From Escherichia coli (lineage in GTDB: Bacteria > Pseudomonadota > Gammaproteobacteria > Enterobacterales > Enterobacteriaceae), in assembly GCF_016026235.1 (NCBI RefSeq), contig NZ_CP065613.1: a stretch of 64,000 nucleotides of DNA. One strand, given 5' to 3'. Shown one piece after another: positions 1,566-5,824 of this stretch. The position numbers and the translations under genes were made by a program. The notes under the pieces are model-generated. The model did no database searches. It saw only the letters and a list, made by a program, of their open reading frames with translations, and was not told the origin of the DNA. Position 1 is the first letter of the stretch; each line of letters begins with the position of its first letter.

Positions 1566-1777
1566 ATGGCAAAAGCCATGATTTAACTAATGTTTAGTAT
1601 TAATTTAACTTTTGTGTAACTTAATTACAGGGTGAATGTAAATAAACCATCAATAAGCAAAAATAAGTGGTCGGATGAGTAGTAAAATTACACAAAAGGC
1701 GGTACTATTTTCATCAGATAAACAAATTCATTTTTCCGGTGCTATTCACCGGGTAGATACAAAAGGGGGAGAAAAGT

Positions 1778-1984
1778 ATGGAACTCTACAGAGAATATCC
1801 TGCATGGCTTATCTTTTTACGCCGTACTTATGCGGTTGCAGCGGGCGTTCTGGCGCTGCCTTTCATGCTTTTCTGGAAAGACCGCGCCCGCTTTTACAGC
1901 TACCTGCACCGCGTCTGGTCGAAAACCAGCGACAAACCGGTGTGGATGGATCAGGCCGAAAAGGCAACCGGTGATTTTTACTGA
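1778..1984 (+). CDS. ybfA: Small conserved protein YbfA (DUF2517), 68 aa
   Basis: Track ORF 1778..1984, [49 protein letters not shown]...; hydrophobic segment; followed by a hairpin and T-tract. Confidence 0.8.
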
Positions 1985-2004
1985 TTGCTGAGTTTTGAAT
2001 ACAT

Positions 2005-2041
2005 TGAAAACCGCTAGTGGAAACGCTGGCGGTTTTTTTCT
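2005..2041 (+). terminator. Rho-independent terminator after ybfA
   Basis: GC stem (ccgctag...ctggcgg) followed by a run of 7 T at about 2034-2040. Confidence 0.5.
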
Positions 2042-2085
2042 TATCGCCGTCTACACTTACTCCTGTAAACCGTTCAGGAGCAGTA

Positions 2086-2595
2086 ATGAATCAGCAACGA
2101 TTTGATGACAGCACCCTAATCCGTATCTTCGCCCTTCATGAGTTACATCGACTGAAAGAACATGGCTTAACGCGCGGGGCGCTTCTCGATTATCACAGCC
2201 GCTATAAACTCGTCTTTCTGGCTCATTCCCAGCCGGAATACCGCAAACTTGGCCCGTTCGTGGCTGATATTCACCAGTGGCAAAATCTGGATGACTATTA
2301 CAACCAGTACCGCCAACGCGTAATTGTTTTGCTTTCTCATCCCGCCAACCCGCGCGATCACACCAACGTTTTGATGCACGTTCAGGGGTATTTTCGCCCG
2401 CATATTGATTCCACAGAACGCCAGCAGCTGGCGGCGCTTATCGACAGTTATCGCCGTGGCGAGCAACCGCTTCTTGCGCCGCTGATGCGTATCAAACACT
2501 ATATGGCGCTTTATCCTGACGCCTGGCTTTCAGGGCAGCGTTATTTCGAACTTTGGCCGCGTGTGATTAACTTGCGCCATTCAGGAGTTTTATGA
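2086..2595 (+). CDS. ybgA: DUF1722 protein YbgA, first gene of the ybgA-phr operon
   Basis: Internal Met of track ORF 2017..2595 (MNQQRFDDSTLIRIFALHELHRLKEHG...); stop overlaps the phr start (ATGA at 2592-2595). Confidence 0.8.
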   Translation: MNQQRFDDSTLIRIFALHELHRLKEHGLTRGALLDYHSRYKLVFLAHSQPEYRKLGPFVADIHQWQNLDDYYNQYRQRVIVLLSHPANPRDHTNVLMHVQGYFRPHIDSTERQQLAALIDSYRRGEQPLLAPLMRIKHYMALYPDAWLSGQRYFELWPRVINLRHSGVL

Positions 2596-4010
2596 CTACT
2601 CATCTGGTCTGGTTTCGCCAGGATTTACGTCTGCACGATAATCTCGCGCTGGCTGCCGCCTGCCGCAATTCGTCTGCACGCGTGCTGGCGTTGTATATCG
2701 CTACACCACGCCAGTGGGCGGCGCATAACATGTCGCCGCGTCAGGCTAAACTTATCAATGCTCAACTGAATGGGCTACAAATCGCGCTGGCGGAAAAAGG
2801 TATTCCTTTATTGTTCCGTGAAGTGGATGACTTTGTCGCCAGCGTCGAAATAGTTAAACAGGTGTGCGCGGAAAACAGCGTTACTCATCTTTTTTATAAC
2901 TATCAGTATGAGGTGAATGAGCGGGCGCGGGATGTGGAAGTTGAAAGAGCGCTGCGTAACGTGGTGTGTGAAGGATTTGATGACAGCGTGATCCTGCCGC
3001 CTGGCGCGGTGATGACCGGCAATCATGAGATGTACAAAGTCTTTACGCCTTTTCAAAATGCCTGGCTGAAACGGCTGCGGGAAGGGATGCCGGAGTGCGT
3101 CGCTGCACCAAAAGTTCGTAGTAGCGGATCGATAAAGCCCGCGCCATCCATTACGCTGAATTATCCTCGTCAGTCTTTCGATACTGCGCATTTCCCGGTG
3201 GAAGAAAAAGAGGCGATTGCGCAATTACGCCAGTTTTGCCAGAACGGTGCCGGAGAATATGAGCAACAACGAGATTTTCCTGCAGTGGAAGGCACCAGTC
3301 GTTTGTCCGCCAGCCTGGCAACGGGCGGGTTATCGCCTCGCCAGTGTTTGCATCGCTTGTTGGCGGAACAGCCGCAGGCGCTGGACGGTGGGGCCGGTAG
3401 TGTCTGGCTTAGTGAGCTGATCTGGCGCGAGTTCTACCGTCATCTGATGACGTATTACCCCTCGTTGTGTAAACATTGTCCGTTTATTGCCTGGACGGAT
3501 CGTGTGCAGTGGCAAAGCAATCCCGCCCATTTAAAGGCCTGGCAGGAAGGCATAACGGGATACCCGATTGTCGATGCTGCCATGCGTCAGCTTAATAGCA
3601 CTGGCTGGATGCATAACCGGCTACGGATGATTACAGCCAGTTTTCTGGTGAAAGATTTATTGATCGACTGGCGCGAAGGCGAGCGATATTTCATGTCGCA
3701 GCTGATTGATGGTGATTTGGCAGCCAATAACGGTGGCTGGCAGTGGGCGGCTTCTACGGGTACTGATGCAGCGCCGTATTTTCGTATTTTCAACCCGACA
3801 ACCCAGGGCGAGAAATTTGACCGCGAAGGCGAGTTTATCCGCCAGTGGCTACCGGAACTGCGCGATGTACCGGGGAAATCGGTGCATGAGCCGTGGAAGT
3901 GGGCTGAGAAAGCAGGTGTGAAGCTGGATTATCCGCAACCGATAGTCGAGCACAAAGAGGCGAGAGTACAAACGTTGGCAGCGTATGAGGCGGCGCGGAA
4001 GGGGAAATAA
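2592..4010 (+). CDS. phr: Deoxyribodipyrimidine photolyase (CPD photolyase)
   Basis: 472-aa ORF MTTHLVWFRQDLRLHDNLALAAA...; photolyase N-terminal alpha/beta domain and FAD-binding C-terminal motifs (WREFY, GWMHNRLRM). Confidence 0.95.
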   Translation: MTTHLVWFRQDLRLHDNLALAAACRNSSARVLALYIATPRQWAAHNMSPRQAKLINAQLNGLQIALAEKGIPLLFREVDDFVASVEIVKQVCAENSVTHLFYNYQYEVNERARDVEVERALRNVVCEGFDDSVILPPGAVMTGNHEMYKVFTPFQNAWLKRLREGMPECVAAPKVRSSGSIKPAPSITLNYPRQSFDTAHFPVEEKEAIAQLRQFCQNGAGEYEQQRDFPAVEGTSRLSASLATGGLSPRQCLHRLLAEQPQALDGGAGSVWLSELIWREFYRHLMTYYPSLCKHCPFIAWTDRVQWQSNPAHLKAWQEGITGYPIVDAAMRQLNSTGWMHNRLRMITASFLVKDLLIDWREGERYFMSQLIDGDLAANNGGWQWAASTGTDAAPYFRIFNPTTQGEKFDREGEFIRQWLPELRDVPGKSVHEPWKWAEKAGVKLDYPQPIVEHKEARVQTLAAYEAARKGK

Positions 4011-4024
4011 CAGACGCGTCAGGC

Positions 4025-4147
4025 AATCGAGCCCAGATGCCGGATGCGGCGTGAACGCCTTATCCAGCCTACAAATTTGTGCAAATTCAATAAATTGCAG
4101 GAAATACGTAGGCCTGATAAGACGCGTCAAGCGTCGCATCAGGCATC
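4025..4147. repeat. REP/BIME palindromic units in the phr-dtpD convergent intergenic region
   Basis: gccggatgcggcgtgaacgccttatccagcctaca and gtaggcctgataagacgcgtcaagcgtcgcatcaggc; imperfect GC-rich palindromes of the REP family. Confidence 0.8.
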
Positions 4148-4159
4148 GGTGCTGGCCTA

Positions 4160-5824
<1,665 letters not shown>

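Follow-up and report, generated by a model that had tools for sequence, protein, structure and literature searches.

Why Escherichia coli should keep, directly upstream of its photolyase gene, a small gene whose product has no assigned role is the question raised by the ybgA–phrB locus, which was analysed here in a stretch of 64 000 nucleotides (nt) of E. coli DNA (NCBI RefSeq assembly GCF_016026235.1, contig NZ_CP065613.1), hereafter the window. On its plus strand, ybgA (2086–2595) encodes a 169-residue stand-alone DUF1722 protein and phrB (2592–4010) the 472-residue cyclobutane pyrimidine dimer (CPD) photolyase, recognized by its Pfam domains PF00875 and PF03441 and by the RefSeq annotation. 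Few proteins of the core genome of E. coli are still without a known function, and YbgA, which is encoded on one mRNA with a textbook DNA-repair enzyme, is among them. The answer that we consider probable, with some reserve, is that ybgA is the orphaned tRNA-binding half of the tRNA desulfidase RudS, made together with photolyase under RpoS, without desulfurizing activity and likely to act as a non-catalytic binder of tRNA or RNA. The evolutionary part of this answer, the origin of ybgA from rudS, is well supported. That ybgA and phrB form an operon is already annotated, and its observation in a preliminary description of the locus was correct; what is new here is that ybgA arose from rudS by in-frame deletion at a syntenic locus, that the catalytic domain was lost repeatedly and independently, and that selection on the remnant has continued.

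YbgA matches the Pfam family DUF1722 (PF08349) over the complete profile (positions 1–117 of 117; E = 5.4e-35; score 120.6 bits, cut-off 22.5) and, from end to end, the NCBIfam equivalog NF007549 (positions 1–169 of 169; 350.3 bits against 237). The preliminary description had called ybgA an uncharacterized DUF1722 gene, a label that no longer applies: in 2024 DUF1722 was characterized as the tRNA-binding domain of RudS, a fusion with the TudS [4Fe-4S] desulfidase that strips 4-thiouridine (s4U8) from tRNA, and YbgA itself was assayed in the same study, in which its overexpression left s4U levels and growth on thiouracils unchanged (Jamontas et al., NAR 2024, PMC11417400). Roughly three in four DUF1722 domains occur as fusions with the TudS desulfidase, and the DUF1722 domain of RudS contacts the anticodon arm of tRNA; rudS genes frequently occur in light-responsive operons with photolyase, and the growth delay induced by ultraviolet A (UVA) is shortened by RudS (PMC11417400).

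An exhaustive HMMER search of 1.84 billion representative proteins with YbgA as the query retrieved 1733 matches. Of the 150 highest-ranking relatives, most are ~315–330 residues long, with YbgA covering their C-terminal half, and YbgA aligns to residues ~160–318 of full-length RudS homologues. Relative to RudS (P. putida PP_0741 and Salmonella STM1389; PMC11417400), the DUF1722 domain is homologous over its full length, YbgA being 55–64% identical to enterobacterial RudS, but the whole TudS domain is absent, and with it the three cysteine ligands and the catalytic Glu and Ser residues. Indeed, YbgA has no match to PF04463 (TudS/DUF523) and begins at the domain boundary. The AlphaFold2 model of YbgA is all-helical, with ten helices and a predicted local distance difference test score (pLDDT) of 96.5, and the predicted fold agrees with the two compact helix groups described for the DUF1722 domain of RudS. 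Stand-alone TudS (DUF523), a desulfidase of thiouracil and 4-thio-UMP, is the other half of RudS and has the same evolutionary origin as the fusion, but it shares no sequence with YbgA; a sequence search of the PDB, which contains TudS structures, returned no match to YbgA (best E 0.26).

The genomic context of the family was surveyed with an alignment of ten DUF1722 sequences against one genome per species, which yielded 478 loci, the best 80 of which were kept. Since these all belong to Enterobacterales, the wider context was taken from 12 single look-ups. A photolyase gene lies directly 3' of the DUF1722 gene at every one of the 80 Enterobacterales loci, and a homologue of ybfA precedes the DUF1722 gene at most of them. 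Sixty-three encode a full-length TudS–DUF1722 fusion of ~318 residues, and two of these genes are frameshifted in the assemblies. Among the 61 that are unbroken, only the Samsonia locus (L058) departs from the pattern CCES[ST]C, with a Ser in place of the second Cys; the other 60 retain the catalytic Glu and all three cysteines of the [4Fe-4S] cluster. The remaining 17 encode a stand-alone DUF1722 protein and belong to Escherichia, the Citrobacter freundii complex, Klebsiella with Enterobacter JUb54, and Trabulsiella; most Yersinia also have a stand-alone gene. Outside Enterobacterales, seven look-ups were informative. In four of them (L085, L089, L092 and L098, all distant relatives of 30–42% identity) the gene next to DUF1722 on its 3' side is a photolyase gene, and one of the four also displays a 4-nt overlap; no photolyase neighbour was found at the other three (L084, L087 and L096). 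The pairing has also been described in Shewanella and Pseudomonas (PMC4336711, PMC11417400). The preliminary description had counted a lack of linkage outside Enterobacteriaceae, along with the lack of a UV phenotype, against a photolyase-associated role; such linkage was found, both in the distant look-ups and in Shewanella and Pseudomonas; the association of DUF1722 with photolyase is ancient and reaches beyond this family.

Comparison of the upstream DNA shows that fused and stand-alone Enterobacteriaceae loci share the element TCTACACTTA (2050–2059 in the window), the ribosome-binding site and the start codon. YbgA thus resembles RudS not only in sequence but also in its locus 5' of phrB and in the signals that precede it. 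In the C. freundii complex the stand-alone genes begin MSKRIPVGI..C, which is the N-terminus of RudS, and these ~14 relic residues are joined in frame to DUF1722. The Escherichia genes have the downstream junction FDDSTL in common with the C. freundii complex, and the relic residues are gone (MNQQR-FDDSTL); the start of the Trabulsiella gene, M-C-ENF, represents a different junction. A tree of PhrB sequences scatters the stand-alone lineages over at least four to five separate positions, and inside Citrobacter they are interspersed with fused ones. The shared upstream elements, the relic N-terminus and the PhrB tree together indicate that TudS was excised in frame, and repeatedly, and that each excision left the DUF1722 frame and its position before phrB intact. 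The stand-alone genes of the C. freundii complex, Klebsiella/Enterobacter JUb54, Trabulsiella and Yersinia occupy the same ybfA–DUF1722–phrB locus as that of Escherichia and, like ybgA, combine in-frame loss of TudS with purifying selection; they differ from it in the gap of 3–27 nt that separates them from phrB, where Escherichia has an ATGA overlap, and, except in Yersinia (P-T-P-A-N), in still having the A-[ST]-R loop, which Escherichia lacks through loss.

Some proteins have travelled only part of this way. P0122 (L086:5001-5960), whose gene occupies the syntenic locus with phrB immediately after it, has 319 residues, but its cysteine triad is replaced (S/S/D) and its TudS match amounts to just 19 bits. 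P0133 (L098:1799-2533) carries an unrecognizable N-terminal stub of 80 residues, and a photolyase gene follows. These proteins represent intermediate states between the fusion and the stand-alone domain. Together with P0124 (L096:4001-4741), they form a set of three in which the TudS extension is decayed, the cysteine ligands are lost and the TudS Pfam score is below the cut-off or absent; the DUF1722 score is undiminished in all three, two of which still precede a photolyase gene. Many further decayed-TudS forms occur among distant DUF1722 homologues.

Selection on the remnant was assessed by pairwise Nei–Gojobori estimates of the ratio of nonsynonymous to synonymous substitution rates (dN/dS). 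Within Escherichia the ratio is 0.144 for ybgA and 0.102 for phrB, and within the C. freundii complex it is 0.090 for the stand-alone DUF1722 gene and 0.069 for phrB; in lineages with fused RudS the DUF1722 domain gives 0.03–0.05 and phrB 0.06–0.07. Judged by these substitution patterns, the YbgA sequence is clearly under purifying selection. A decaying pseudogene was ruled out, as ybgA is intact in a spread sample of E. coli genomes and its dN/dS is far below 1. In the alignment, 84 columns reach an invariance of at least 95% across 61 fused sequences; at 62 of these all Escherichia agree with the fusions, and the domain has retained its net charge (+5 to +8; fused domain, +7.1).

The changes in YbgA are clustered in an N-terminal LRENF segment, in a C-terminal PYPExLxLRYG tail and in the loop A-[ST]-R-R-N. 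LRENF and PYPExLxLRYG are invariant in the fusions and decayed in all stand-alone lineages; its loss in every one of them suggests that the PYPExLxLRYG tail packs against TudS. The loop, which reads A-[ST]-R-R-N-H without variation in the 61 fused enterobacterial RudS sequences, is A-N-P-R-D-H in E. coli, with its eroded core at ybgA codons 87–91 (A-N-P-R-D; 2344–2358). YbgA has diverged from RudS in both this loop of anticodon contacts and the C-terminal tail. Codon 89 (2350–2352), an invariant Arg in the fusions, encodes Pro, Arg, Thr or Ser among species-level Escherichia genomes, and residue 89 is unusually variable within an otherwise constrained protein.

The junction between the two genes was the feature from which the preliminary description had started, and its reading that ybgA ends in the photolyase start codon proved correct. 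The ybgA gene begins with ATG at 2086–2088, preceded by AGGAG at 2076–2080, and ends with TGA at 2593–2595; the ATG of phrB occupies 2592–2594, so that the two share ATGA at 2592–2595, and a phrB Shine–Dalgarno sequence, AGGAG (2583–2587), lies within the final ybgA codons, 4 nt before the ATG. RefSeq gives the same two coding sequences with an identical 4-nt overlap. The start at 2086 given earlier is therefore right, but the end at 2600 is not, the true stop lying 5 nt earlier at 2595. The structural arrangement of a translationally coupled pair, an ATGA with a Shine–Dalgarno sequence inside the upstream open reading frame (ORF), is present, the ybgA–phrB junction is found in 5422 of 5426 complete E. 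coli genomes, and ATGA occurs in all Escherichia loci, the −4 overlap being seen in the six of six species-level Escherichia genomes retrieved as well as in the window.

From this overlap a stoichiometric coupling of YbgA to photolyase had been proposed, a proposal that the comparative data do not bear out. The overlap is mainly a detail of Escherichia: across the 80 loci the spacing to the photolyase gene is −4 nt (ATGA) at eight, 3–30 nt at 66, more than 30 nt at four and unclear at two. Such overlaps are also routine in operons. In the closest RefSeq genome, an annotated stretch of 50 kb contains three same-strand 4-nt overlaps (ybgC–tolQ, ybgP–ybgO and ybgA–phrB) and about ten neighbour overlaps of 1–11 nt, so that the one studied here is not statistically remarkable. 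The RNA of the junction has no significant structure masking the phrB Shine–Dalgarno sequence (minimum free energy z = −0.9), which makes reinitiation at phrB after termination of ybgA plausible but not required. Since the overlap is largely confined to Escherichia, phrB has a Shine–Dalgarno sequence of its own, no structure masks it and 4-nt overlaps are common, a special stoichiometric tie is unsupported. The overlap represents the tightening, specific to one lineage, of a junction that was compact already, and amounts to ordinary operon architecture.

Co-expression of the two genes, on the other hand, was borne out. They are adjacent, the terminator scan detected no terminator between them, and both rise more than fourfold in early stationary phase in E. 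coli O157:H7 (PMC2241611). The stop codon of ybfA and the start codon of ybgA are separated by 101 nt, in which a scan for sigma-70 promoters found none upstream of ybgA. In many genera of Enterobacteriaceae, whether the locus is fused or stand-alone, the sequence CTACACTT lies 26–29 nt 5' of the start codon between diverging flanks, and an exact TACACT match near the start is present in 53 of 84 sequences. The −10 consensus recognized by sigma-S is KCTAYRCTTAA, with a C at −13, and a good −35 element is dispensable. At 2050–2060 the window has TCTACACTTAC, which fits ten of the 11 positions of this consensus, and the conserved TCTACACTTA is a putative sigma-S type −10 element of the ybgA/rudS promoter. 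In a published panel analysed by reverse-transcription PCR, ybgA is one of 22 RpoS-regulated genes, and control of the ybgA–phrB pair appears to be exerted by RpoS in stationary phase. The DUF1722 gene is likewise co-transcribed with the CPD photolyase gene in the phrB–litR–rudS operon of Pseudomonas, under LitR, and in the ybgA–phrB–cfa operon of Shewanella (SO_3386), under RpoE2; in contrast to those operons, no LitR/MerR or ChrR/ECF (extracytoplasmic function) regulator gene adjoins the E. coli pair, either in the window or in the RefSeq neighbourhood. Light-inducible photolyase operons of the LitR/CarH type have a neighbouring gene for a B12-dependent regulator of the MerR family.

The s4U8 residue of tRNA is the near-UV sensor behind the UVA growth delay, and the wavelengths that crosslink s4U are those that drive photoreactivation. 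The history that we propose begins with an Enterobacterales operon in which rudS, encoding a TudS–DUF1722 s4U8 desulfidase, lay directly upstream of phrB, a module in which erasure of UVA-sensitive s4U and light-driven DNA repair would have been turned on jointly. In the Escherichia lineage an in-frame internal deletion took TudS and spared the promoter-like element, the ribosome-binding site, the start codon and DUF1722, and the remnant, ybgA, has stayed under purifying selection immediately 5' of phrB, with the gap tightened into ATGA. YbgA would keep the helical fold and the basic surface of RudS, and its most likely function would be that of a non-catalytic tRNA- or RNA-binding protein made along with photolyase in response to stress.

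To place ybgA as a relic of rudS left by in-frame deletion gives a protein of unknown function a concrete biochemical hypothesis, binding of RNA or tRNA without catalysis, and the repeated loss of an Fe–S catalytic domain with retention of the binding domain constitutes a natural experiment on the passage from an enzyme to a non-catalytic protein. The loss of TudS may also help to explain why the UVA growth delay is stronger in E. coli than in relatives that have kept RudS. What is known of photolyase is unaffected by the rudS origin of ybgA.

Several observations weigh against this interpretation. Photolyase is present at just tens of copies per cell, and a tRNA binder stoichiometric with it could hardly affect the tRNA pool. 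The constraint on ybgA is relaxed, its dN/dS being ~3–5 times that of the fused domain, and no homologue of solved structure supplies an independent functional clue. S243 and R244 of RudS_KT are the DUF1722 residues whose mutation reduced activity most (PMC11417400, Table 2), and when the RudS_KT residues are mapped onto YbgA through P0206 and that table, the E. coli loop has N-P at the positions of these two anticodon contacts. Moreover, the published gel shift used full-length RudS_KT and not DUF1722 alone, and overexpression of YbgA yielded no phenotype in the published assays (PMC11417400), which, in contrast to RudS, includes the lack of any desulfidase activity. 

The ybgA deletion is among the Keio mutants hypersusceptible to epetraborole, an inhibitor of leucyl-tRNA synthetase (PMC12457515); this is a possible tRNA-related phenotype, but one of dozens of hits in that screen, and it could be due to polarity on phrB.

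The same linkage could be read as the mark of a photolyase-linked function proper to DUF1722, in which YbgA binds photolyase, or brings it or another factor to UV-damaged RNA or tRNA, a reading that we regard as unlikely. It would fit the retention of DUF1722 directly 5' of the photolyase gene after at least four to five independent TudS deletions, the persistence of the domain beside a decayed TudS at L086 (P0122) and L098 (P0133), the distant stand-alone DUF1722 gene at L085 (31% identity), which is followed by a photolyase gene, and the purifying selection on YbgA. However, the DUF1722 genes at L084, L087 and L096 have no photolyase neighbour, nor, in the two contexts that were looked at, do the accessory RudS copies carried by plasmids, islands and phages of E. 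coli, and the adjacency of ybgA and phrB is equally well explained by inheritance of the operon. No interaction between YbgA and PhrB has been reported, and single-chain AlphaFold2 prediction of YbgA-(G4S)6-PhrB from 19 paired sequences gave no confident interface (predicted template modelling score 0.58, pLDDT 73.7), which is a weak negative. A related idea, to which we give little credence, is that DUF1722 constitutes an autonomous light- or UV-stress module working with photolyase, which would recognize UVA-crosslinked or UV-damaged tRNA or RNA for photolyase or for turnover; if true, it would account for the retention of the domain beside phrB after at least four to five losses of the desulfidase. 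Of the photolyase-associated role suggested in the preliminary description, the conserved linkage therefore stands, but it is best read as inherited from an ancestral rudS–phrB operon and does not amount to evidence that YbgA acts on or with photolyase.

A reading that dispenses with the protein altogether takes the ybgA frame mainly as a translated leader for phrB, providing promoter, ribosome-binding site, protection against polarity and delivery of ribosomes. All TudS deletions are in frame and preserve the ancestral start and the tight phrB junction, the phrB Shine–Dalgarno sequence lies inside ybgA next to the stop/start overlap, constraint is relaxed relative to the fused domain, and a functionless product would agree with the absence of an overexpression phenotype (PMC11417400). 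Nevertheless, dN/dS values of 0.09–0.14 over the whole 169 codons, in several independent lineages and near those of phrB, point to selection on the amino acids of YbgA beyond the mere upkeep of an open frame; 62 of the 84 RudS-invariant positions are kept, phrB has a strong Shine–Dalgarno sequence of its own that RNA structure does not mask, and most genera show a gap of 3–30 nt and no overlap. We consider it improbable that ybgA is such a leader. Far less probable still is a split RudS, in which YbgA would bind tRNA in trans for a separately encoded TudS-type desulfidase. Separate TudS and DUF1722 genes have been raised as a possibility (PMC11417400), and a TudS-domain gene is indeed present in 70 of 5426 complete E. 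coli genomes (on plasmids in 56 and on chromosomal islands in 14), but these accessory genes encode full-length DUF523–DUF1722 RudS fusions and no stand-alone TudS. Furthermore, E. coli of the K-12 type is reported to have no TudS or RudS homologue (PMC11417400), the TudS part at the ybgA locus was deleted and not relocated, and LRENF and PYPExLxLRYG are decayed in all stand-alone lineages.

The accessory rudS genes are exemplified by NZ_CP100950.1 (L101:4953-5912) and by the phage NC_049947.1 (L102:3012-3971). Twelve lambdoid Escherichia phages carry rudS, which in phage 1H12, the single one inspected, is located between the Q antiterminator and the lysis genes. No photolyase gene was found beside accessory rudS in the two contexts examined.

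The region upstream of ybgA has further features. The RNA of 1985–2120 folds with −37.9 kcal/mol (z = −3.0). A terminator-like hairpin of the intrinsic type, with a 14-bp stem and a T run (2006–2037, plus strand), was detected by the terminator scan 49 nt 5' of the ybgA start, where it ends ybfA and sets this gene apart from ybgA–phrB in E. coli. Beyond it, a short inverted repeat, CTCCTG (2060–2065) and CAGGAG (2075–2080), forms a hairpin of 6 bp, with the ybgA Shine–Dalgarno sequence as its 3' arm. Covariation lends this 2060–2080 hairpin weak support, since 66% of the pairs form and shuffles reach 62.5% (3/500), and RNAalifold found no consensus structure for the 5' untranslated region of rudS/ybgA. 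In many Enterobacteriaceae (loci L001–L082) the sequence just 3' of TACACTTA can pair with the Shine–Dalgarno region of rudS/ybgA, and the stem sequences of these hairpins differ among genera; the hairpin may go untranscribed if transcription starts just 3' of the −10 element. In Rahnella and Hafnia a conserved palindrome, GTATAAC-N-GTTATAC, replaces the TACACTTA element upstream of rudS, lying in Rahnella ~60–90 nt 5' of the rudS start (for example L026, L040 and L046), and is a possible operator for another regulator.

The pair is flanked by kdpFA, ybfA, dtpD and ybgI. The upstream neighbour ybfA (1778–1984, plus strand; DUF2517, Pfam PF10725, E = 2.9e-34), which is kept beside the rudS/ybgA–phrB pair, encodes a small hydrophobic protein of 68 residues. 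An antisense ORF of 110 residues within ybgA (2167–2499) was taken as a chance ORF within a conserved coding gene. Directly 3' of phrB, at 4011–4160, the window contains palindromic repeats resembling repetitive extragenic palindromic sequences and bacterial interspersed mosaic elements, which explain why a 2.5-kb query matched each E. coli genome at a median of 23 places; a match to the small RNA family ES036 (CssrF) of Rfam lies inside this region at 4073–4115 (75 bits). Bases 1600–4100 of the window are 100% identical to strain FDAARGOS_943, where RefSeq names the genes ybfA, ybgA and phrB. Comparison of 1–800 and 4160–5641 indicates that the window comes from a strain other than its best RefSeq match, NZ_CP065615.1: there the insertion sequence IS5 lies in kdpA and IS1 truncates dtpD, the dtpD ORF of the window being intact (493 residues), although the two sequences are 100% identical across ybfA–ybgA–phrB.

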